Positions 17,106 through 52,675 of a stretch of DNA of 64,000 bases are shown here, one piece after another; the first letter of the stretch is position 1, and each line of letters starts with the position of its first letter. The stretch is from a virus. The stretch lies in IMG/VR virus record IMGVR_UViG_3300044971_004534; one strand, written 5' to 3'. Below the pieces are notes generated by a model, which saw nothing but the letters and a program-made list of their open reading frames with translations, did not search any database and was not told the DNA's origin. The position numbers were made by a program, and so were the translations under genes.

Positions 17106-17591
17106 ATGCAGTACAAATTATCTAAAAGCGAATGGCTCAAAATAGGCGAACAAGCTGGATGGCTGAGGATCAGCGGGGAACAGGCAGTCCTGACGAAGCA
17201 GGGGAAATCAAATGTTGCTGGTGCGGTCTTTCAGGTGATGCGTAAACCCGAGATAGCAAAGAGGATCATTGAACTTTCTAAAATCTGGAATTCCAATTCA
17301 AGCGAGTTTAGCAAGAAGCTTCAAGATCTGGAGCAAGAGATCGTTGTTGACTATCATAATTTTTTGGACACAGGAGCATCAGAAGATTTGTTCATTGACC
17401 GAATCGAGTTACGGAGTATCATTGAAAAAATCATCTATAAAATGCTTGAAGTTGGCGACTTGGGAGTTCGGGAAGCAGGCGAACAAGCTGGATGGCTGAA
17501 GGAAGCCAAGTGCTGGAAGGGCTACAAAGCCGTTGGCATGAAGAAGAAAAAGGGCAAGACCGTTCCCAATTGCGTCCGCAAGGAGAGCTGA
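17106..17591 (+). CDS. hypothetical protein with long N-terminal leader module
   Basis: MQYKLSKSEWLKIGEQAGWL at the N-terminus; the GEQAGWL core is repeated near the C-terminus before the CWKGYK...PNCV tail. Confidence 0.6.
   Translation: MQYKLSKSEWLKIGEQAGWLRISGEQAVLTKQGKSNVAGAVFQVMRKPEIAKRIIELSKIWNSNSSEFSKKLQDLEQEIVVDYHNFLDTGASEDLFIDRIELRSIIEKIIYKMLEVGDLGVREAGEQAGWLKEAKCWKGYKAVGMKKKKGKTVPNCVRKES
17145..17166 (+). repeat. 22-nt perfect intragenic direct repeat (copy 1)
   Basis: ggcgaacaagctggatggctga; copy 2 at 17478-17499; both encode GEQAGWL. Confidence 0.85.
17478..17499 (+). repeat. 22-nt perfect intragenic direct repeat (copy 2)
   Basis: Identical to 17145-17166. Confidence 0.85.
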
Positions 17592-18662: not shown

Positions 18663-19181
18663 ATGCAATACAAACTATCTAAAGAACAGTGGTTGGAGAT
18701 CGGGCAAAAGGCTGGTTGGTTCAAAATTGCACAGCAAGAAGAGAAAGGACGTGCATTCTTCGTCACTGCTTCAGAAGAAGAAATAAAAAAATATATAGAC
18801 AGCATAGAAGAGTCGTCTGCGCAGGATCTTGCCGACAACCTTGCGGGCGAAAGAGACATGATGAGGGAGAGTGCAAATGGGGCTCGTAGGGCTGCGATGT
18901 CAGCTGATGCAGGCGGAGACGCTGATGACTACAGATTCCAGCTCAAGTTAGAAAAGCAAAAAATTGAAGTTGCAGACAAGTTTGCAAAAGCACTGGCAAT
19001 GCTTACGGTAAGATTTCCGAATGTAAAAACTCCAGAACCAGCCAAGCTCATGGACATGGCAGATTCAATGGAGACACTTTCTCAAAAAGAACATGAGCAA
19101 TCCCGAAGCCAAAGCACCTTACAGGGAGATGCAGAAAAAAGACTGAGACTACCTGGCCTGGGAGCAAACACCCCAAGATAA
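18663..19181 (+). CDS. hypothetical protein with long leader module
   Basis: MQYKLSKEQWLEIGQKAGWFKIAQ. Confidence 0.6.
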   Translation: MQYKLSKEQWLEIGQKAGWFKIAQQEEKGRAFFVTASEEEIKKYIDSIEESSAQDLADNLAGERDMMRESANGARRAAMSADAGGDADDYRFQLKLEKQKIEVADKFAKALAMLTVRFPNVKTPEPAKLMDMADSMETLSQKEHEQSRSQSTLQGDAEKRLRLPGLGANTPR

Positions 19182-21587: not shown

Positions 21588-21640
21588 CGCGTTGCAGGTA
21601 ATCATCTGTTAGCGTTGAATATATTTCAATGGAGAATTAT

Positions 21641-22096
21641 ATGCAATATAAATTATCAAAGTCAGAGTGGGAATCTATAGGCGTCAATGCTGGGTGGATG
21701 AAAATTGCTGGACCTGGCGGAAGATTTCAGGCTTCCATGAGTGCAGCAGAGCAAAAGTTGTGGGCAAGCCTAAATCAGCAACAAAAAAATAATTATGCAA
21801 CATTGGATGCTGCCAATAGAGCAAGGGTTGCAGCACTGCCATTGCAGCAAGCACAACAATACCTGAACAGCATAATGCCACCAGCTGGAGGTAAAGTCCC
21901 AACAGCTTCATTTGATAATGAAATAAAGACGGCTCTTAAATTAAATGACAAAACTGATGAAAAAACACCAGAGCAGTATAAGGAAGAGTTTATAGAAAGA
22001 ATGAAGTCCATCGGGATGACAGATGAAGAAATCGAGCGTGCACTAAAATCTGGATATTTAGAAAGAATCATGAAAGGCAGAAAGAATAAAGAATGA
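21641..22096 (+). CDS. hypothetical protein with long leader module
   Basis: MQYKLSKSEWESIGVNAGWMKIAG (track start 21629 adds MENY). Confidence 0.6.
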   Translation: MQYKLSKSEWESIGVNAGWMKIAGPGGRFQASMSAAEQKLWASLNQQQKNNYATLDAANRARVAALPLQQAQQYLNSIMPPAGGKVPTASFDNEIKTALKLNDKTDEKTPEQYKEEFIERMKSIGMTDEEIERALKSGYLERIMKGRKNKE

Positions 22097-23689: not shown

Positions 23690-24328
23690 TTATTTACGCT
23701 TACGTTGACTAAAGCTGCAAAGACCTGCAATACCAATAAGAGATACTGCTCCTGGTGCAGGAATTGCGTTTACTCCAAAGCCACAGTAGTCAATAAAGTT
23801 TCCCTGAGTAGATCCGCCTGTGGCGCTAACTGCCTGAAATGCGAATCTTGTCAGATTTCCTATACTAACTATAGATCCTGAATGAAATTGCCAAGCAGTT
23901 TCATCTGCAGTAAAGTTGCCCTGATACAGAACAGTGTCATCTCCGTTGCCATACAGCTGATCTGCGCCAAGATCAATTATTGAAAGCTGCATGACATCAA
24001 CTCCGTATCTGCCTCTGTGAGCAAAATGCCAATTAATTGTATTGAAATCTCCTAAGCCATTGACGTGCTGATACAAAGTAGAATCGTAGTTTGCATTGAG
24101 TTCAGCGAATGAACTTCCCTCATATGCAGGCACTCCAAGAAATCCATCTGACCAAATCTCCAAATTGTTGTCTGGTGCTGTGGTTGCCCAGTTCAAAGTT
24201 GGGTCAGAACCAGAAAAGAAACCATAACCCCAGGTCTGAAAATCTTCAAAACCACCGTTTACAAGATCTGCCATACAACTTGTAGAAATAACTAAAGTAG
24301 ACAAAAATGCACAAGCGTATTTAACCAT
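23690..24328 (-). CDS. secreted PEP-CTERM-anchored protein
   Basis: Signal peptide; NGGFE start of the mature domain; C-terminal IPAPGAVSLIGIAGLCSFSQRKRK (Pxx-P / TM / basic). Confidence 0.7.
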   Translation of the reverse strand: MVKYACAFLSTLVISTSCMADLVNGGFEDFQTWGYGFFSGSDPTLNWATTAPDNNLEIWSDGFLGVPAYEGSSFAELNANYDSTLYQHVNGLGDFNTINWHFAHRGRYGVDVMQLSIIDLGADQLYGNGDDTVLYQGNFTADETAWQFHSGSIVSIGNLTRFAFQAVSATGGSTQGNFIDYCGFGVNAIPAPGAVSLIGIAGLCSFSQRKRK

Positions 24329-24369: not shown

Positions 24370-25164
24370 TTATATTCTTTTACGATTATGAAAAAATTGA
24401 CTAAAAGCAACTACAGTAAAAGCTCCAGGTGATGGAACGGACGGTGGCACATAGTATCCACCAGTGTCTATACCATAGTACTCTCCAAATCCATAGTTAG
24501 TTCCAAGAGCAAGTGTAGTGCTATAGACATCAAATGGCAGCAAACTAGGAGTAAAAAAGGCTGCGTATGGATCTGCAAATCCTGTTTGAGCTGCCAAAGA
24601 GGTAACCGGGGCTAAATTAATATCTGTCGCCAAAGCTGCCTGCACAATTTGCTTTGTCAATTTATTTTGCTCATTAGTAACAACAAGTGGAGCTTCAACT
24701 GGCTTATCTCCACCAATTTTATTTTCTTTGGGAAATCTAGCAAGTTCATCTGAGATCTGATAGCCACGAGTCTGTTCTTTGTTGTCAATTTTGAATGGTT
24801 TCTGCCAGTGCCCTTGATAAGGTTGGCCAAACAAAGCGGAATTTGACTGCTTATTACTATTATTGTCTTTTTGTTCTTGATTTTTTGGAGCGTCTGCTTT
24901 CCCAATATCAGAAGCTGCAGTTATGGCAGAATTCATGCCATTAATCGCTGACATAAGAGACTGTACTCCACGTTCACCAAGCAATGTGATTGCAGAAGTA
25001 CATACGATGGTCATAACGTAAACTTTTTTCTCTAAGCTTTTAACCTTAGATTTTGCTTCTTCACACATTCTGGCACATGAAGAGCATCCCCCAGAAATGC
25101 TCTCAACATGCGAGTGTGAAACTGGCGTAGGCGCAGGCTGCTGAATGTCTTTTTTAATCCCCAT
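24370..25164 (-). CDS. PEP-CTERM-like protein
   Basis: C-terminal VPSPGAFTVVAFSQFFHNRKRI; internal hydrophobic segment VYVMTIVCTSAITLL. Confidence 0.55.
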   Translation of the reverse strand: MGIKKDIQQPAPTPVSHSHVESISGGCSSCARMCEEAKSKVKSLEKKVYVMTIVCTSAITLLGERGVQSLMSAINGMNSAITAASDIGKADAPKNQEQKDNNSNKQSNSALFGQPYQGHWQKPFKIDNKEQTRGYQISDELARFPKENKIGGDKPVEAPLVVTNEQNKLTKQIVQAALATDINLAPVTSLAAQTGFADPYAAFFTPSLLPFDVYSTTLALGTNYGFGEYYGIDTGGYYVPPSVPSPGAFTVVAFSQFFHNRKRI

Positions 25165-25322
25165 TTGTACCCCCCGATACTTTGAAGTTGCGAATATACT
25201 TAATTTAAAAATACGATATATTATTTCATTTTCCTTTTGTAATAAGCACTCATCTTATTTGATAATAGTCAGAAAGGTAATGGATTTATTTTTAGTAATA
25301 TTTTATGTATTTAAAGTATTTT

Positions 25323-28004
25323 ATGAATATAGAAAAAACTGCACAACTTAATTGGTTTCGAGGAATAAGGGATCGCATTCGTGGCAACAAGCCAGATGAA
25401 AGCGGTCAAGAATTGTCATTTAATGAACAAGAACTGCGTGGGCTTGAAGAAATAGAAAGAAGAAAGACTGAAGAAGAAAGAAAAAGAGTTGATAAGCTGG
25501 TCCAAGAATCAAAAGAAAGAGCTGAAAGCTTTGGTAGACCTGACAATATTCCCGGAAAATTTGAATTAAGTAGATCTAGTATTCAAAATATATTGTCTAT
25601 GGACAGAGATACTTTATGGCATAAGCTTTGTGCATCTTTTGAGAATTGTTCTCCTTATGTTTCTGAAACTACGGCACAAAGGGGAAGAATAATAAGATAT
25701 CTTGTAGACACTAGGCAAGGCGATTATCGAGGTGGCTGGGGAAGTGTGCTTAGGAGCATAGATTTTCTACTGCAAGGATTAGAATTAGATATACGTAATG
25801 CAGGCAATAATAGTAAAGCGGCAATATCTCATAATAATATGCAAGAAATTTTTACCAATAGAGATTGGCTCATGGCAAATAAAGATGGAATTCAACGAGC
25901 CTATGCACAAGCATCTCCAGACTCTATTAATAAAGAAGTTTTAAATAAATTTTTAACAAATAAACAATCGTATTATGCTCGACGTGATGCAGCTATAGAA
26001 GTATGGGCATCATTTTTAAAAAATAAATATCAATATTACTATGGAAATACATTAAGTGATCAGTATTTTTATAATATTCATCTGTATGCGGATAGGTTAT
26101 GGGAAGATTTTAAATTATATTTTCGATTGATGTCAGGTAATCTATTCCACAACATAGGCATTCAATTAGGTAAAAAATACTTACCAGAAGATATGCAATC
26201 AATTTCTGATGGTGTTCATGCAATAGATGTAAGTATGTTCGACATAGCAAAGCCAGCTAATTTAATGCAATCACGCAGTAATGCAAGGGGTGAAAATGAT
26301 ATCTTTTATAATTGGACCGTGAATAAATGGAAAGAATTTGTAGAAGATACACATTTAATGCTAAGCGTCTTTGGATTTAATTTAAAAGGTGTGTCAAATA
26401 TTAATAATATAAATGGAGAAAATTTATATTACAATATGATGCAAAAAATAATTATGATAGAAAATATTGTTAATAGAGATCCTTTTATAAGTCATATTTT
26501 TAATAACAGTAGATTAGATTTAGGAGATAGCTATTATATATATGCACAAATTAAAGACAAAATGAGTGCTGATCATAATCCAAATAGAGAAGAATATTTA
26601 GTTTCTATATTAAATCAAATTTATGTTAATCAGCATGGAGGGTACTCAAGAGCAATATCTGAAGCTTCAGATGAAAGTTTGAGATCGGCGGCAGATAGGG
26701 TGCCATTTGCAGTAGAACATATTTTATTGCATTTAGAATTTGGTGAAAATATGTATAATGTTATTAATAATTTTGACCAATATCAATCTGCTCTAAATTC
26801 ATACAGAGAAAAACAGCATTCAGCATTAAAAAAAGTAAGAAACGTTCTAGCCAATCCTGATTTAACACAGATGTCTCCCGAAGAGGCAAGACAGTATTTT
26901 GTAGAAAAACTTAATAGACTAGCGAATAGGGAGTTTGAAGGTAGCAATATCGAAAAGGCAAAGCAAGAGCAAATTCTTGATTCTCCATTTGAGCACACAT
27001 CAGTGATAAGACCGTCTACCTTTCCTGGTCAAGCAGCATTTAATAGCAACTCCTTGCCTGAATTGCAAGGAACTCCAATTTCTTTTAATATAGCAATTTA
27101 TCCAAAAAAGAAAGAAAATGACCCGGAAAACTTTGCACAAGTTCTTGCTCCAGGTGGGCACGCACAAGATGGACTAAACTTTCATCATCAGAATATTCCG
27201 TCATTAGAAAATAAGAAATATTATAGTCATATACTTGGCTGGATAGGTGGATGGGTTGACGTAGTAGGCTCGAACATGTATATAGCAGAAATTCAAAGCG
27301 ACGTTATGCAACATACGTCTTACATGAAAGATCCAGAAAAGTCAAAAACAAAATTGAACGAAGAACTTAAAAAGCAAATGCAAGAATTGCAAAAAGAAAA
27401 AGACAATCTTGCTAAACAATCTACAGAAGGTATAGAAAAATTCTATGATAAAAGAATTGAAGAGTTAGAAAAAAAGAGAGATAGCGCAAATAATGAGGCA
27501 ATGAAGCAGCAAATGGATACTGCAATAAAAAAATTAACAGAACAAAAAAACGCTAAAGAAGATCCGTGGGTTAAACTAAGAAAAAAAATAAAAGACATAG
27601 AAAATGTTATTGTTGAAATTAAAAATCAAATTCAAGAGCTTATTGATTATGAAAGAAACACTAACGATCAATGGAGAAAAAGGCCGCAGTTTGCTGATGT
27701 AAAGTCAAAAATAGAAAATAGATTTTCTGAATATGTCGATGTTTTTTATAATGAAGCAATTTACTATTGTGCTCAACTCAAAATTAAAGGTTTATGGATA
27801 GTGCATTCAGATCTTTTAGCTGCAGTCTGGCGACATTTTGCAACGGCTGATACCGTAGAAATGTATAAGAAAATATACGACAAACGAGCGATGGAGATGG
27901 GAGCAGAAAAGAAGGGCAACTGGTGGCACTTAGATCTTACCAAGAAAATGCCTAAGTATGCAAGCACAAATTGGTATCAAAGGACTAAAAATGGGATGGT
28001 ATAA
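25323..28004 (+). CDS. giant hypothetical protein A (paralogue of B)
   Basis: About 890 aa; N-terminus MNIEKTAQLNWFRG; C-terminal ~340 aa align block by block with 27991..31086. Confidence 0.7.
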   Translation: MNIEKTAQLNWFRGIRDRIRGNKPDESGQELSFNEQELRGLEEIERRKTEEERKRVDKLVQESKERAESFGRPDNIPGKFELSRSSIQNILSMDRDTLWHKLCASFENCSPYVSETTAQRGRIIRYLVDTRQGDYRGGWGSVLRSIDFLLQGLELDIRNAGNNSKAAISHNNMQEIFTNRDWLMANKDGIQRAYAQASPDSINKEVLNKFLTNKQSYYARRDAAIEVWASFLKNKYQYYYGNTLSDQYFYNIHLYADRLWEDFKLYFRLMSGNLFHNIGIQLGKKYLPEDMQSISDGVHAIDVSMFDIAKPANLMQSRSNARGENDIFYNWTVNKWKEFVEDTHLMLSVFGFNLKGVSNINNINGENLYYNMMQKIIMIENIVNRDPFISHIFNNSRLDLGDSYYIYAQIKDKMSADHNPNREEYLVSILNQIYVNQHGGYSRAISEASDESLRSAADRVPFAVEHILLHLEFGENMYNVINNFDQYQSALNSYREKQHSALKKVRNVLANPDLTQMSPEEARQYFVEKLNRLANREFEGSNIEKAKQEQILDSPFEHTSVIRPSTFPGQAAFNSNSLPELQGTPISFNIAIYPKKKENDPENFAQVLAPGGHAQDGLNFHHQNIPSLENKKYYSHILGWIGGWVDVVGSNMYIAEIQSDVMQHTSYMKDPEKSKTKLNEELKKQMQELQKEKDNLAKQSTEGIEKFYDKRIEELEKKRDSANNEAMKQQMDTAIKKLTEQKNAKEDPWVKLRKKIKDIENVIVEIKNQIQELIDYERNTNDQWRKRPQFADVKSKIENRFSEYVDVFYNEAIYYCAQLKIKGLWIVHSDLLAAVWRHFATADTVEMYKKIYDKRAMEMGAEKKGNWWHLDLTKKMPKYASTNWYQRTKNGMV

Positions 28005-31000
28005 GTTTGCACAACTTCATGCAATGAAGTGCTCTCCAGTAAACTTGAAAAAGTTACTGCAATTTGCACACACTCCAGGACAGGCTTATTTGTTCGAGAT
28101 GGGCGAAGAACATTCTGCTATGCAAAAACACATAGAAAGACTTGGCGGAAAAAGATATAAAATTCAATTTTTACTCAACACGTTTGATGCAATGCTTACC
28201 GATCTAGATAACACAAAATTAGATTTTGAAGTAGATCAAGATAGGATTGCAAATCGCATAGATTCCGACTATGTAGAAGAATCATATGGTTATATTTTTG
28301 ATGAAGATGACACTAAGTTTTGGGAAAACATAGATGGCATAAATGATCAAGTTTTAGAATTTATTGAAGAATCTTGGGATGTTTCTGAAGATGACTTTGA
28401 GAGTCGCTTATTTCATTATCCAGTAAGTAGTCGTGAACCAAATAATTCAAAAGAACTCGTTAGTCTCAAAGACATTTCAGAAGAACTGTCTAGTTTTGCG
28501 TATTTTGGAGATATGATTTCTTGCATAGGCAATTTGAAACATGATAAATATGTAGCTCGTGATATCATGAGAGAAATAGCGGATATAGATATTGATTTAA
28601 GGTCAATGGGAGAATCAGCAACCGGCATTCATGTTCATACGTGGGCTAAAAATAAAGGCATTGATCTGACGCTTGCTGTGGTTCAAAAAGCAGCAGGTGG
28701 AGAACAAAATGTTGAGATCGCAAAATACGATCCAGATTCAGCAAAACAAATAGCACAAAAAGCTTACTCTAATGTTGCAAATTCTTGGGTTGACAGTATA
28801 GAAAAATTACCACATTCTAAAACAGATTTAGAAGAAGCAATTGAAGAAGCATTCAGAGATCAGGTAAAAGAATCATGGTGGGAGTCTAACAAACAACGCT
28901 TTATGGAAGATGCAGTTGATAATGAAATTGAAAGTACTGCGGATTCATTTAATTATGATGATAGAAGATGGGCTAAAAACACATTGCCCGCAGAATCAGT
29001 AGACCCAAACGTCAGACATCATGTAAGTAAAACTTTTACGGAAGCATTAAAGGAGCACAGCTGGCTAGATAGAGACGAAGATTCTGGTCATGTACAGGTT
29101 GAAGCTAGTAGCTATTTTGCAAACTTAGGAGTTAAAGATTGGAGTAAAATAGCGGATGATATACAGGAAATGGCGGATGACCACGCAATGACTGGTTACG
29201 AAGATTATGTAAAAGAAATAAGATCATATACATCTATGATTAATTGGATTGTAGCAAGTGATCCAGACTTGTCTGCAATCTTTTCTGATGAAGACGCAGA
29301 CCCGACAACACTTACGCAGACTGCTACGGATTTGGGGCAAATAGTTAAAACTTCATATGAGGTTATATCTCTTATGCCTCAGGACGATGCAAGACGCATG
29401 GAGCAAAGCATAACTGCAGAAAATCCAGAGATTGAAGACTGGATTAAAGCCTTAAGAGAAAGAGAAGAAGTAGAAAGACAGGCGAGAGAAACTCAAGCTG
29501 CCATGCTTGCGGAAGAAGAGGCAAGAAAAGCTATACAAAGATCAAATAGAGAAAGAATTGAAAAAGAAGTTTCTGAAGAGTCTAAAAAAATTAATGATCC
29601 AAATATCGGCTCAAGGTCTTTCACAGAAGAGCAAAAGCAGCAGGCAAAAACTCAAAACATTATTGGTAAACCATTTGAGCACATGTCAACATTGCGGGTT
29701 GATCAAAAATACCCTGGAGTGAGCGCCTTTGTGTTAAAGCCAGTACCTATGGAAAGTGAAGTTCCTTATAAGACTTTCCATATTGCTATATATCCAAAAA
29801 AGGAGCAAAGCGATCCGACAAGACTGCATGATGTCTTTGATAGAAGTGCGGGTTTAAATTTTCATGGATTTAGTTTTCCTGAACATGTGAATGAAAATTA
29901 TTACGATCTTATTGGATGGGTTGGCGGCACTATTGACCTTTATAATAAGATAATGTACGTCACAGAAATACAAAGTGATGTAATGCAAAATACCCCTCGC
30001 ATGAAAGATGTTTCCAAGAGCATTGTTGCTTTGAACGAGGGAAAAAATAGCTTATTAGCTGAAGCTGAAAAAATAAAAACATATATTACCACAAATGATA
30101 TCAATGCATATTATGACAAGAGAATACAAGATTTAAAATTAAAAATTCAATCCATGAGTGACAGTCCTGCTGCAATGCAAATGCAGCAAGCTGTTTTAAA
30201 ATTAGAAGAGTTAAAGAATAAGGGTGTAGACCCTTTTGAAAAAGAAAGACAAAAACTACACGATATTGACAATAAACTTAAAGAGATTAATAGGCAAATA
30301 AATGATATAGAAGAATTTGATAAGAAACCTTCTGCCAAACTAAATAAACCTCATCTTTCAGAATTAAGATCTCGAATAGAAAATAGATTTACTGATTGGG
30401 TAGATACCTTCTATAATGAAATATTTATGTATTGTTCTCGCTTAGGAATAAAACATTTATATATAGCAGCTTCTTCTTATTTGTATCTAACATGGAGACA
30501 GTATGCCAAGGCATCTACACTAGAATTGTATAAAAAGATATATGATACAAAGGCTGAGAAGTACGGAATGCGTAAAGTACATTATAAGGGTGTCACGTAT
30601 TGGCATTTAGATCTATCAGAAAACATGCCAAAGTTTGCGAGCAAAGAAAGGTTACAAATGTCTAAAAATAATTGGTATAGGCAAATTAAAACTGCAATGG
30701 ATTTTAGCAGTATTTACATTGATGATATAAAAAGAAAATTTTCTAATGGAGAGATTACGGAAGAGCAAATGCAAGCGCAGATACGTGAAAGATATATGGA
30801 ACACACACAAGATCCAACTACTCGTGACCCAAAACTGTTTATTATAGAAGCAAAAACTTTCTTTGATACGATTAAGCATATTGAAGGCAGAGAAAGGGGT
30901 GGAGAAGATTCTGAGTTTTCAAAAGCTCAATTTATGAGGGAAGCATTGGGTCAGTTTTTAGAATTTAATGGTAAGAAATATACAGACAGAGACGGCAAGC

Positions 31001-31086
31001 TAGAAGAGCCATTTAAATCAATACTTCAAAGATTGCTTATACAGAAATTTAATTACGACATGGATTTAGATGAAATGGTAGAGTGA
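27991..31086 (+). CDS. giant hypothetical protein B (paralogue of A plus ~140-aa extension)
   Basis: In-frame MGWYKFAQL start overlapping the stop of A by 14 nt; contains an internal NNWYRQIK. Confidence 0.7.
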   Translation: MGWYKFAQLHAMKCSPVNLKKLLQFAHTPGQAYLFEMGEEHSAMQKHIERLGGKRYKIQFLLNTFDAMLTDLDNTKLDFEVDQDRIANRIDSDYVEESYGYIFDEDDTKFWENIDGINDQVLEFIEESWDVSEDDFESRLFHYPVSSREPNNSKELVSLKDISEELSSFAYFGDMISCIGNLKHDKYVARDIMREIADIDIDLRSMGESATGIHVHTWAKNKGIDLTLAVVQKAAGGEQNVEIAKYDPDSAKQIAQKAYSNVANSWVDSIEKLPHSKTDLEEAIEEAFRDQVKESWWESNKQRFMEDAVDNEIESTADSFNYDDRRWAKNTLPAESVDPNVRHHVSKTFTEALKEHSWLDRDEDSGHVQVEASSYFANLGVKDWSKIADDIQEMADDHAMTGYEDYVKEIRSYTSMINWIVASDPDLSAIFSDEDADPTTLTQTATDLGQIVKTSYEVISLMPQDDARRMEQSITAENPEIEDWIKALREREEVERQARETQAAMLAEEEARKAIQRSNRERIEKEVSEESKKINDPNIGSRSFTEEQKQQAKTQNIIGKPFEHMSTLRVDQKYPGVSAFVLKPVPMESEVPYKTFHIAIYPKKEQSDPTRLHDVFDRSAGLNFHGFSFPEHVNENYYDLIGWVGGTIDLYNKIMYVTEIQSDVMQNTPRMKDVSKSIVALNEGKNSLLAEAEKIKTYITTNDINAYYDKRIQDLKLKIQSMSDSPAAMQMQQAVLKLEELKNKGVDPFEKERQKLHDIDNKLKEINRQINDIEEFDKKPSAKLNKPHLSELRSRIENRFTDWVDTFYNEIFMYCSRLGIKHLYIAASSYLYLTWRQYAKASTLELYKKIYDTKAEKYGMRKVHYKGVTYWHLDLSENMPKFASKERLQMSKNNWYRQIKTAMDFSSIYIDDIKRKFSNGEITEEQMQAQIRERYMEHTQDPTTRDPKLFIIEAKTFFDTIKHIEGRERGGEDSEFSKAQFMREALGQFLEFNGKKYTDRDGKLEEPFKSILQRLLIQKFNYDMDLDEMVE

Positions 31087-31309: not shown

Positions 31310-31762
31310 ATGTTTAAAGTAAATGATATTAAAATATCAAAATATGACTGGATCAATATCGGCATACATGCTGGTTGGATCAAGACATCTCATATGGGGC
31401 ACGCTCCAAATGTCTACGATATGACTGCGCATATGTTGCATTACAGAAGCTTGTACGAAGAACACATCAGTCCTGTTATAAAAAAATTGGCAGTTCATTT
31501 GCAAAAAGGTCTTTTTAATAAAGAAATGGCTTTGGCTTCTTTTGAAAGAATTGCTCATAAAGGAATAGAAATGTATATTAAGGAGCATGGTGAAATAGAC
31601 GTGACTCCAATGATTGTAAGATCTATAGCTGAAAACTTATTAGACAACTACATGGAAGAGATAACAGATGAGCTTTTGACTATAAGTGACGAAAATATTG
31701 TGTCGAAAAATAAGGATGAGAAGAAAAAAGCTCCCAATAAACGCAGAGACCGTAATCCATAG
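31310..31762 (+). CDS. hypothetical protein with leader variant
   Basis: MFKVNDIKISKYDWINIGIHAGWIKTS. Confidence 0.6.
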   Translation: MFKVNDIKISKYDWINIGIHAGWIKTSHMGHAPNVYDMTAHMLHYRSLYEEHISPVIKKLAVHLQKGLFNKEMALASFERIAHKGIEMYIKEHGEIDVTPMIVRSIAENLLDNYMEEITDELLTISDENIVSKNKDEKKKAPNKRRDRNP

Positions 31763-33729: not shown

Positions 33730-34497
33730 TTAGAACTTGACTGAACCACCAAAGCGAACGATAAGATCAAGCGGCGAACCCGTGTATTGAGCGAATGGGA
33801 CATCAACTCCGAAGTTGAGGTCTGCATTGGGGCAAACGCTCCAGTTGAGTGCTGGACCGATTGTGCTCAAGCTGTCTCCGCTATCAAGATACCAGAAATT
33901 ATAATTAACTGCCAAATCAAGCTTATCAACAAGCTCATAAGCAAGATCTGCATTAACATTCATGATGTCTTCTGTAGTAAAGCCGCCAAAAACTGGGATA
34001 TAGTCACCATTAGTGTTAAATTCCCAATTCATGCCAGCACCCCAGGTCAACTTGTCAACAAAGGTAGTTCCCTCTGTGGCAAGGCCAAGGACTACGTTTA
34101 CGCTGTTACCACCGTAGCCAGCAGAGCTGGTTGGGAGCTTAACATCAACCGACAGGTCAGCCTTATCCATAAAGCTCAGGGGCTTGTGGACGAACGTCCA
34201 ATCTGCGCCCAAGTCAAGCATGCCTGCACCGGTGACTCCGTCAGTATAAACTGGCAAGGTCAGGTGGGTAGTAAGATCCTTAATTGGGGTCTGCCAGTTA
34301 AGCTGCTGAACAAACTGGGTAACGTTGCCAGTGTCCAGGTTGTAGAAATTGATCTTTTCATCAAAGCTAAAGTCGTTTAGCTTGAAGAAAGATGCAAATC
34401 CACTGTCGTTTGTCGCAACAGCAGGCTGAGCTGTCTGAGCCAAGGCTGAGACACTAAGTACTGATGCTCCGACGATTCCAATGATCGTTTCCTTCAT
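33730..34497 (-). CDS. secreted outer-membrane beta-barrel (porin-like) protein
   Basis: Signal peptide ...SALAQTAQ; alternating-hydrophobicity strands; C-terminal ...GGSVKF with terminal Phe. Confidence 0.6.
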   Translation of the reverse strand: MKETIIGIVGASVLSVSALAQTAQPAVATNDSGFASFFKLNDFSFDEKINFYNLDTGNVTQFVQQLNWQTPIKDLTTHLTLPVYTDGVTGAGMLDLGADWTFVHKPLSFMDKADLSVDVKLPTSSAGYGGNSVNVVLGLATEGTTFVDKLTWGAGMNWEFNTNGDYIPVFGGFTTEDIMNVNADLAYELVDKLDLAVNYNFWYLDSGDSLSTIGPALNWSVCPNADLNFGVDVPFAQYTGSPLDLIVRFGGSVKF

Positions 34498-50729: not shown

Positions 50730-52214
50730 ATGATTAAGAAGAGCATATCTGAAGAATTTTTGAGAAGCCAAGATCCAAGGCTACTTTCTCCTCTTATGTC
50801 TGGAGACAGCAAGTCTTATGCTACTGTAATGATGTATAAATCTTTAGATCAAATGGACGCAAGCGCAGAGATGAAACAAGCTTTAAGTAAGATTGTAGAA
50901 GATGCAAAAGTTAAATTTCCTGATTTTTCCTTTAATCAAGTCCCTTATTATTGGCTCATCAAAGCTTCTAAAGCAAAATATGCTGCTATTAATATACGCA
51001 GCTTTGATGGTAAAACAATTCCAATATTAATAATTCGCCAACATAAAGATAAGGGAGTTGTAATTGGTTATGATTATGTCAACTTAAATAGTGGTCAATT
51101 AGTGTATGCAAGATCTGCTGAATTAATCCAGCCAGTTACCGAAGCATTGCATGGCATGAAGTCGGAAAGTTTAAGTACACTAATTAAGCTCAATAGGGCT
51201 ACTCAGTTTCTTATTAGAGACAAAGAGTCTTGGGCTAGGAATGAAAGGCTTGCTGCTTATGAAAGGGGAGATGTTTCCAATCTTATCCCAGCCATATCTA
51301 TGTTGCAAAAGTGTGAAGAGATATTGACACTACGCATAGAGAGATTGAAAAACATAGTCATTTATTATCAAAATCAAAGTAACACAATTACCTCAGAAGG
51401 ACCACCATCTGTTTTTGAAGATGTGGCTAAGCTTATTGATGAAGAAATTCAGACAAAAGGCTCAAAGTTTATTAAAACAGAACAAGACGCAATACATGCA
51501 TTAGTCATGAGATACTTAGGTAAGTCTGGTGAATTTGAACAAAAAATAAAGTCTGGATCACTTTCAAATATCTTGCCAGATCCATCTGGAAAGCAAAGAC
51601 ACAATGTTAAAGATATACTAGAAGTTGCTTTTAAAATTGTTAAAGAAATTGATGCAGAGGCTGCAAGAAAAAGAGAATCTAGAAAAACATACACTAAAGA
51701 AAGAACTGAAGCTATAGAAAAACCTCAAGAGTTACCAGATACAGAATCTCACCCAATTTTTAAACAGATTACTGCTCCAATAACTGAGGAAAGTTTTAAA
51801 GATATTCTACCTGGAAACATCAAAGGATTTCAACATGCAGGCATGTGGATAGGTGAAAAATATGCAGTAGAGATTAATGAAACAAACTTAAAATTAAATG
51901 CCATGAATAAGATGCTATCAGCTGTTCAGTCAATAATAAAAGTTTTACAGTTAAAGAGAGATACGAAAAAACTTTCAGTAAGTAATTTTAGCAAACAAGA
52001 TCTTAGTGAACTAAGAGACGCTCTCGCTGCATGCATGACTCTTGTAAATTCTTATAAGCAAAGTGTGGTAACAAAAGAAAACAAACTTAATAAGAATATA
52101 GTTCATTCCATATTTGGAGATGCTGCAATGGACTTTTTTGTAGCAAGGTATATTGCAGTAATGATCAAATATATAGAGATGGTGTTCGTTAAATCATATA
52201 AAGAGGCAACATGA
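50730..52214 (+). CDS. hypothetical protein (494 aa)
   Basis: ORF track. Confidence 0.55.
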   Translation: MIKKSISEEFLRSQDPRLLSPLMSGDSKSYATVMMYKSLDQMDASAEMKQALSKIVEDAKVKFPDFSFNQVPYYWLIKASKAKYAAINIRSFDGKTIPILIIRQHKDKGVVIGYDYVNLNSGQLVYARSAELIQPVTEALHGMKSESLSTLIKLNRATQFLIRDKESWARNERLAAYERGDVSNLIPAISMLQKCEEILTLRIERLKNIVIYYQNQSNTITSEGPPSVFEDVAKLIDEEIQTKGSKFIKTEQDAIHALVMRYLGKSGEFEQKIKSGSLSNILPDPSGKQRHNVKDILEVAFKIVKEIDAEAARKRESRKTYTKERTEAIEKPQELPDTESHPIFKQITAPITEESFKDILPGNIKGFQHAGMWIGEKYAVEINETNLKLNAMNKMLSAVQSIIKVLQLKRDTKKLSVSNFSKQDLSELRDALAACMTLVNSYKQSVVTKENKLNKNIVHSIFGDAAMDFFVARYIAVMIKYIEMVFVKSYKEAT

Positions 52215-52675
52215 ATAATTGGTATAAAATTTCGCAAGCAAAAGGAGCTCCTCCCCCGCCGCCACCACCCCCGCCACCGCCGCCCGGAGTACCTCCGCCA
52301 CCTCCTGGAGGTGCTGCTCCTGCCGGTCCTTCTGAGCAGCGCGTAGGAACAGTTTCAGGAGTAGACGCAGAAGAAGTTAATGAGATTAAAAAAGATGATA
52401 AAAAATTGCTTAAAAAATTAAATAAGCATTTTAAAAACGCTATCGATTCTGGTCACGATATTGAATTGTCTGCAATTATGGCAATTATGGCAAATGGATC
52501 TACGTTAAGTCCTGGGCAGCTAGATATAGCAGAAACATTTGACCCTGATTTCCCCGAACAAGATCCTCCCTTCATAAGGTCAATCATAGGAATTCATTTG
52601 GGGACTAAGGCGCCAGGTCAGGCTACTCCTGATGGAGCCACAGGAGCTCCACCACCGCCTCCTCCAGGTCTATAA
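52211..52675 (+). CDS. poly-proline protein with short leader (MNNWYKISQ)
   Basis: 12 consecutive Pro codons at 52250-52285, then GVPPPPPGG; C-terminal GAPPPPPPGL. Confidence 0.55.
   Translation: MNNWYKISQAKGAPPPPPPPPPPPPGVPPPPPGGAAPAGPSEQRVGTVSGVDAEEVNEIKKDDKKLLKKLNKHFKNAIDSGHDIELSAIMAIMANGSTLSPGQLDIAETFDPDFPEQDPPFIRSIIGIHLGTKAPGQATPDGATGAPPPPPPGL

Follow-up and report, generated by a model that had tools for sequence, protein, structure and literature searches.

Tandem paralogues of a large phage share a module with a predicted, strongly derived GNAT-like fold

Very large proteins of phages and plasmids in which RimI-like GNAT domains occur with variable partners have been described as polyvalent proteins, for which packaging and delivery along with the DNA are predicted (Iyer et al. 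2017, PMC5512222). In this study, we analyzed two adjacent genes, A and B, within a 64,000-nucleotide stretch of viral DNA (IMG/VR record IMGVR_UViG_3300044971_004534; hereafter the window), which is part of the genome of a large uncultivated phage. Both genes encode large proteins that share a C-terminal module. Judging from predicted models, the module is best read as a divergent GNAT-like fold that is strongly derived and has a remodeled donor site, and we do not count it as a member of the GNAT family. In GNAT enzymes the junction of strands β4 and β5 holds the catalytic base and the cofactor, and helix α4 holds the general-acid Tyr. The reading we favor, with confidence about evenly balanced, is that A and B are tandem paralogues whose module is a probable group-transfer enzyme targeted by the N-terminal head of each protein, with A diversifying.

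A tandem pair with a common C-terminal module

The two genes and their parts are as follows (ORF, open reading frame; aa, amino acids):

25305..28004, + strand: gene A as in the ORF list, 899 aa from the first ATG
25323, + strand: probable start ATG of A, giving 893 aa
25323..26918, + strand: head of A, ~530 aa, hypervariable in its center (aa 150-550)
26919..28001, + strand: module of A, aa 539-899 (BLASTP against B, AlphaFold2 model and family profile search)
27333..27659, + strand: coiled-coil insert of A, about aa 677-785, with four long helices (module residues 139-168, 171-189, 193-211 and 218-247)
27958..31086, + strand: gene B as in the ORF list, 1042 aa from the first ATG
27991, + strand: probable start ATG of B, giving 1031 aa and a 14-nucleotide overlap with the end of A
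27991..29604, + strand: head of B, ~540 aa, strongly acidic
29605..30699, + strand: module of B, aa 550-914 (BLASTP against A and family profile)
30010..30327, + strand: coiled-coil insert of B, about aa 685-790, aligned to that of A
30700..31083, + strand: C-terminal domain of B, ~128 aa, without counterpart in A, following an internal NNWYRQIKTAM tag at 30667-30699

The start of A is likely ATG 25323 (MNIEKTAQ), because the orthologue in the related locus L007 opens with MDTEKTAQ, and that of B is likely ATG 27991 (MGWYKFAQ), because the homologue P0008 opens there. The resulting lengths match the ~890 and ~1030 aa given in a first-pass annotation of the window. Residue numbers below refer to the 899-aa ORF for A and the 1042-aa ORF for B.

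BLASTP aligned the C-terminal ~360 aa of the two proteins (A 539-898 vs B 550-914) with 40% identity, 59% positives and an E value of 1e-76, confirming the earlier description of large duplicated neighbors with a common tail. All sequence blocks quoted at that time were found (PFEH, F(N/H)IAIYPKK, GLNFH, GW(I/V)GG, Y(I/V)(A/T)EIQSDVMQ, YDKRI, IENRF..(Y/W)VD.FYNE, YKKIYD, WHLDL and MPK(Y/F)AS), and the module starts then placed at 26985 and 29671 are those of the PFEH blocks. The heads had been called unrelated, which holds at the level of BLASTP, where no pair of A and B segments outside the module scored below E 0.2, but not at the level of profiles. When A-type heads (A, P0007, P0009, P0010 and L007 orf1) were compared with B-type heads (B, P0008, P0011-15, P0024, P0041, L007 orf2 and L009), hhalign found remote homology with 95.6% probability (E 1.3e-8, ~105 columns, A 275-397 vs B 320-435), for example IENIVNRDPFISHIF vs INWIVASDPDLSAIF. 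Hence, A is a full-length duplicate of B. The head of A had no match in Pfam, PHROGs or PDB, and that of B, which has a net charge of -52 and a pI of 4.56 and is kept in B-type relatives, had none in Pfam or PDB. The C-terminal domain of B (~130 aa) is kept in P0005, P0008 and P0011-15 and had no match in PDB. The widespread architecture is that of B, with a head, the module and a ~130-aa tail; B-type relatives are P0008, P0011-15, P0024, P0031 and P0041.

A word-indexed protein search returned just 6-7 relatives of the module, all but one of them annotated as 'hypothetical', so that an exhaustive profile search was needed. Among 1.84 billion representatives, this search identified 100 at E<=1e-3, 69 at E<=1e-10 and 30 at E<=1e-30, the family size of ~100 being counted in clusters at 50% identity. 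In many members, which are 900-1000 aa long, the module spans roughly residues 450-850. One relative, a fragment, carries the automatic label 'nuclease with TOPRIM domain', to which we gave no weight. A scan of IMG/VR with a narrower family alignment recovered 5 loci. No relative of the module was found in 50,697 INPHARED phages by tblastn with three family members as queries, or in 185,579 GTDB species genomes by two pattern scans. Scans of A, B and their relatives against Pfam, PHROGs and NCBIfam gave only coiled-coil noise, and searches of the PDB sequences with the module and two family profiles (phmmer, hmmsearch) gave only coiled-coil matches, in line with the earlier statement that the module could be assigned to no family. 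Every family contig examined was phage-like in nature. The module is a previously unannotated domain family that has so far been found only on uncultivated phage-like contigs. This defines a sizeable family of uncultivated large phages that is annotated in no current database.

Predicted fold and invariant residues of the module

Conservation was counted over the family alignment and is given here at positions in A numbering, together with the location of the main motifs:

G645, G648 and G649: 77, 75 and 78 of 78
W646: 78/78
D652: 57/72 (79%)
E662, Q664, D666 and Q669: 79/79 each
S665: 76/79
T671: 73/79
E804: 83/92
N805: 76/92
N816: 78/91
Y858: 90/90
D859: 81/90
27288..27311, + strand: invariant motif of A, E662-I-Q664-S665-D666-V-M-Q669, where strand β4 ends and the next helix begins (model strand 119-126, helix 128-131)
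29965..29988, + strand: invariant motif of B, E670-I-Q-S-D-V-M-Q677
27714..27878, + strand: second conserved half of A with E804-N805 (IENRF), N816 (FYNE) and Y858-D859 (IYDK)

An AlphaFold2 model of the A module, made from a 32-sequence alignment, had a predicted local distance difference test score (pLDDT) of 92.5 and a predicted template modeling score (pTM) of 0.82, with the following elements in module residues:

strands: 3-6, 26-31, 54-63; hairpin 107-114 / 119-126; 291-295; hairpin 330-332 / 335-339
helices: four long helices within 139-247; 256-268 and 272-286; 297-303 and 310-326

The K/E/Q-rich segment noted earlier between the two conserved halves was modeled as the four long helices (module residues 139-247). 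In one subfamily (P0069, P0071, P0072, P0073, P0075, P0078, P0082, P0086, P0090 and P0091) this segment is missing, and the sequence passes from ...TE(L/M)QSDLLQRT... to ...KSKLENRF... within ~20 residues. Hence, the segment is an insertion and the core of the module comprises ~200 aa. In A and B, the inserted arm of ~110 aa sits between strand β4 and the helix preceding strand β5, and it would serve for oligomerization or for binding of a partner or nucleic acid.

A Foldseek search with the model of the A module returned mostly coiled-coil proteins, with the GNATs 5c82, 7ypu, 6cw2 and 4bhw further down. Because the coiled coils swamped this search, we modeled a natural insert-less homologue, P0078 (residues 366-594; pLDDT 89.3, pTM 0.84). 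All of the top 50 PDB matches of this model were GNAT acetyltransferases, the best being tGcn5 (1m1d) with E 3.7e-3 and probability 0.99, at template modeling (TM) scores of 0.27-0.47. They include Tetrahymena and human Gcn5/PCAF, the nourseothricin/streptothricin acetyltransferases Nat (5c82) and OrfE (7ypu), AAC(6'), a mycobacterial cAMP-regulated acyltransferase and Eis-type 4oll (TM 0.47). Within BFVD the named matches were nearly all GNATs or acyltransferases (best E 2.1e-4), and the others were mostly unnamed viral proteins, several of them 800-1400 aa long. In both predicted models, the order of strands and helices is compatible with the GNAT core β1-α1-α2-β2-β3-β4-α3-β5-α4-β6, in which β4 and β5 run parallel and splay apart. 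The invariant polar set is sharply defined, with GWxGG on β3, ExQSDxxQ at the end of β4, EN before the α3-equivalent helix, N within that helix and YD in the α4-equivalent helix. By topology, these residues would gather round the β4/β5 junction, and they appear to surround the positions that the catalytic base, the cofactor and the general-acid Tyr take in GNATs.

These results bear on the first-pass annotation's proposal that the module is a PD-(D/E)xK-fold nuclease resembling BglII, with Gln at the Lys position (D652...E662-x-Q664). As in BglII-type nucleases, a linear D-x9-E-x-Q pattern lies on a β-hairpin: G-x-h-D-x9-h-h-E-h-Q is present, with the Asp in 57 of the 72 aligned members. Nor is the pattern topologically absurd, since in both the PD-(D/E)xK and the GNAT fold a crossover helix and then a parallel strand come after a β-hairpin. 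However, there was no nuclease among the top 50 PDB or the top 50 BFVD matches listed, and the Asp is the least conserved of the proposed triad, the other members having N, T or S in its place or insertions that displace it, in contrast to E, Q, D and Q of the β4 motif. In the model, the Asp (module residue 114) ends strand 107-114 beside the turn and E124/Q126 end strand 119-126, so that, from the DSSP strand register, they would be at opposite ends of the hairpin and ~5 strand residues apart, with G107-W108 facing E/Q. In PD-(D/E)xK enzymes, the Asp opens the first strand and so faces (D/E)xK. Moreover, SDxxQ, EN, N and YD have no counterpart in the nuclease motif. Since the structural matches are to GNATs only, the Asp is variable and the hairpin geometry does not fit, we reject the nuclease reading, which we regard as highly improbable; a non-nuclease fold with D, E and Q apart had been named beforehand as the result that would speak against it. 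The module thus differs from BglII-type nucleases in its predicted GNAT-like fold and in its Asp, which varies among members and is positioned at the wrong hairpin end, and a false lead is removed.

Several points weigh against the reading of the module as a GNAT-like transferase. The Foldseek scores are modest, with no PDB match at E<=1e-3, the low TM scores given above and large root-mean-square deviations, and both models are predictions. GNAT motif A (Q/R-x-x-G-x-G/A) is absent from the module: β4 is followed by an invariant Q-S-D-x-x-Q-(R/N)-T without Gly, and K-S-K-x-E-N-x-F precedes the α3-equivalent helix. The Asp in the position of the GNAT pyrophosphate loop would argue against classical coenzyme A (CoA) binding. 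No Acetyltransf or GNAT Pfam model matched A, B or 28 family members, even at E<=10, and hhalign against 40 homologues of streptothricin/nourseothricin acetyltransferases gave a probability of 3.7%. This weak alignment is topologically sensible, with GWIGG on β3, hhVxE on β4, KSKxENxF at the position of motif A and FxNxAxxxAxxxGxxxhxI paired with α3-β5. A and B are not adjacent to head genes in the window. It is the missing motif A, the lack of a GNAT profile match and the low hhalign probability that keep us from classing the module within the GNAT family.

Divergence of A, a recurrent peptide tag and the genomic setting

Two related loci keep the tandem pair, L005 with proteins of 886 and 1042 aa and L007, which is more distant, with proteins of 920 and 904 aa, the orthologues of A being P0007 in L005 and orf1 in L007; the more distant phages L002 and L009 have a single B-type gene. 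A neighbor-joining tree of the module splits an A clade from a B clade. When comparing the proteins of the window with those of L005, we observed 98.8% identity for B and 53.9% for A, and 16 of the 17 other aligned ORFs were 90.6-100% identical. The exception is ORF 17106-17591, with 52% identity over its C-terminal part only; in addition, L005 lacks a counterpart of ~220 bp at 21709-21932, where ORF 21629-22096 starts. Along A, 96% of the residues in aa 1-50 are shared with P0007, whereas the identity drops to 22-48% over aa 150-550 and is 48-73% in the module. The DNA of the flanks is 95-99% identical up to position 25793, and that from 25793 to 26853 is at most 64% identical or unalignable. 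Further alleles of A are P0001-P0004 at 68-74% and P0009 and P0010 at ~50%.

These comparisons sharpen the earlier picture of a variable head and a constant tail, in that A stands out as a hot spot of divergence when near-identical genomes are compared. The pattern indicates probable allele exchange or strong diversifying selection; for A versus L005, synonymous sites would be saturated for an estimate of the ratio of nonsynonymous to synonymous substitution rates (dN/dS). A and B are an ancient tandem duplicate pair of which one copy is conserved and the other hypervariable. B would retain the ancestral conserved architecture, and A would be the derived copy, subject to rapid diversification or allele exchange as expected of a protein that engages a variable host factor. 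A conserved and a hypervariable member within near-identical genomes offer a natural experiment for finding the host factor engaged.

At least 6 otherwise unrelated ORFs of the window, among them that of a LysM/peptidase endolysin-like protein, begin with a recurrent peptide, M-(N/G/T)-W-(Y/L)-K-x-(A/S)-(Q/R), which also closes the module in both A and B:

17592, 19200, 22093, 27991, 45690 and 52211: tag at the N-terminus
27969-28001, 30667-30699 and 35172: tag internal or C-terminal
27969..28001, + strand: C-terminal copy of A, N-W-Y-Q-R-T-K-N-G-M-V, a low-confidence terminal helix in the model

The tag stands on four ORFs as counted from the first ATG, compared with 0.5 expected, and is also present in L005, L007, L002, L003, L008 and L009. 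A repeat at the DNA level was rejected as its source, as the codons differ between copies; hence, the signal is at the level of the peptide. The tag is possibly a targeting or processing signal. A literature search on the MNWYK tag returned nothing relevant. At the A/B junction (27958-28004), NWYQRTKNGMV of A and MGWYKFAQ of B are 8 codons apart in different frames, and a one-base frameshift would join both proteins into one. Three small ORFs (18663-19181, 21629-22096 and 31310-31762) share an N-terminal (Q)YKLSKxEWxxIGxxAGW(F/M/I)K, whose last residues form the W-x-K element of the tag, and in ORF 52211-52675 a stretch of 12 prolines (MNNWYKISQAKGAPPPPPPPPPPPPGVP) comes after the NWYK tag.

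The first 8 kb of the window encode a DNA polymerase exonuclease-like protein and PHROG families. Elsewhere we identified genes for a subtilase, an SNF2 helicase, UDP-galactopyranose mutase, ribonucleotide reductase, a polynucleotide-kinase-like ATPase, the LysM/peptidase endolysin-like protein, thymidylate synthase, a sigma factor and an HNH endonuclease; no tRNA and no head gene was recognized in the window. The surroundings of A and B are nucleotide-metabolism, replication and unknown genes. The guanine-cytosine (GC) content drops around 16-22 kb, from 55-60% (1-16 kb) to 32-39% (22-64 kb). A chimeric assembly was rejected as the cause, since the same gradient is seen in L005, an independent assembly (Logan SRR28680805) with 94-99% identity across the junction; the gradient is therefore native. 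A scan of the window for promoters and terminators found no more than chance. Three genes on the minus strand (23690-24328, 24370-25164 and 33730-34497) encode secreted-looking proteins. All three have a signal peptide, which is combined in two of them with a PEP-CTERM-like tail (PAPGA, hydrophobic stretch, RKRK) and in the third with a sequence that resembles an outer-membrane barrel and has Phe as its last residue. Those at 23690-24328 and 24370-25164 lie just upstream of gene A, are divergently transcribed and are kept in L005 and L007.

Possible functions and comparison with known systems

If A and B are tandem paralogues with a GNAT-like transferase module, as we favor, the heads would provide targeting and the module would be acyl-transferase-like, acting on a host or phage macromolecule. 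As the canonical CoA pyrophosphate loop is absent, the donor may not be acetyl-CoA. A catalytic module would then be a GNAT-fold enzyme with a replaced CoA-binding loop, pointing to new chemistry or a new donor.

Alternatively, the module could be a non-catalytic GNAT-like scaffold which, together with the arm, serves as an assembly, oligomerization or binding module of virion-internal or other structural proteins. In that case, the invariant residues would have a structural role in capping helices and packing the hairpin, or they would make up a binding site. Portal or terminase genes beside some relatives fit this explanation. In L001, whose contig carries portal and Acb2/Tad1 genes, the portal gene is 3 genes upstream of the homologue; L012 has genes for ribonucleotide reductase and terminase, with the large terminase subunit TerL encoded 3 genes downstream of the homologue, and in L013, which has terminase genes and giant proteins, TerL is encoded ~7 kb upstream. 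There is no portal or terminase neighbor at the copies in the window, in L002, whose contig has sugar-nucleotide genes, or in L014, which has ligase, DnaB, primase and queuosine-type genes. An S-D pair with which a helix begins is typically an N-cap, and a GWxGG sequence is typically seen where strands pack tightly. The lack of the canonical cofactor loop also fits a scaffold, and the long coiled coils and very acidic heads would suit proteins that are structural or internal. However, E, Q, D, Q and Y are absolutely invariant over ~80-90 sequences that are otherwise 15-30% identical, a pattern more usual for active or ligand sites, and a whole subfamily dispenses with the coiled coil. The fusion partners are enzymes: the insert-less relatives of 1266-1651 aa (P0082, P0086, P0072 and P0075) carry HDAC-type, HAD phosphatase or 2H phosphoesterase domains and LRV/HEAT or pentapeptide repeats, as in P0082 (HDAC, module and HAD) and P0086 (2H, LRV and module). 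We therefore consider a scaffold possible but doubtful.

The absent CoA pyrophosphate loop would also suit a GNAT-fold transferase with a macromolecular donor, either aminoacyl-tRNA, as used by FemABX/MurM and L/F-transferase, or an acyl-acyl carrier protein, with the arm binding the tRNA or the carrier. A coiled-coil arm within a GNAT-like core, present in only part of the family, has a parallel in staphylococcal FemA/FemX, which have such an arm, and Weissella FemX, which lacks it. Moreover, an acyl-carrier-protein gene is found three genes upstream of the homologue in L001, but this neighbor occurs in one locus only. No Fem protein or L/F-transferase was among the Foldseek matches listed, and matches to FemX (6snr, E 0.049) and to the arm of seryl-tRNA synthetase reflect coiled-coil composition only. 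Taken together, we judge a donor of this kind to be quite unlikely. In L001 (7008-11113), the short homologue P0006 lies downstream of a T4-type portal gene, the acyl-carrier-protein (PP-binding) gene is located between the portal gene and P0006, and the contig also encodes an Acb2/Tad1-like anti-CBASS/Thoeris sponge.

The most far-reaching interpretation is that A and B are capsid-packaged, injected effectors of a new GNAT-fold class with a non-CoA donor, that NWYKxAQ is a capsid-targeting or processing signal like that of T4, and that the hypervariable head of A determines specificity in an arms race with a host defense or target while B provides a conserved function. As a whole, we hold this combination to be unlikely. 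For the ejected effector or anti-defense role suggested in the first-pass annotation, the support is circumstantial: portal or large terminase genes near some relatives, the fusions of the insert-less subfamily in the manner of polyvalent proteins, and the tag. Against it speaks the position of A and B of the window among metabolic and unknown genes.

GNATs are the only named structures matched by the module models. As in GNATs (1m1d, 5c82, 7ypu and the AAC(6') structures 7bxz and 5e96), an antiparallel meander leads to β4 in the predicted core, after which come a crossover helix, β5 in parallel orientation, a further helix and a hairpin at the C-terminus. Many GNATs have the general base on β4 and the general acid in the α4-equivalent helix, and the module has an invariant Glu on β4 and an invariant Tyr in the corresponding helix. 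Unlike GNATs, it has ExQSDxxQ and ENxF in place of Q/R-x-x-G-x-G/A, two extra helices or the 110-aa four-helix arm between β4 and α3, and an extra N-terminal β/α region (PF.H...PG). With FemABX/MurM, the module shares a GNAT-like fold without classical CoA use and an arm inserted in some members only, but it has one core, whereas Fem proteins have two GNAT-like lobes. As in polyvalent proteins, relatives of the module are found in the same protein as HDAC, 2H phosphoesterase, HAD or LRV/HEAT. The RimI-like GNATs of polyvalent proteins are recognizable, whereas our module is matched by no Pfam model, including those of the LPD families, and A and B combine it with unassignable heads and, unlike polyvalent proteins, have no second recognizable effector domain.

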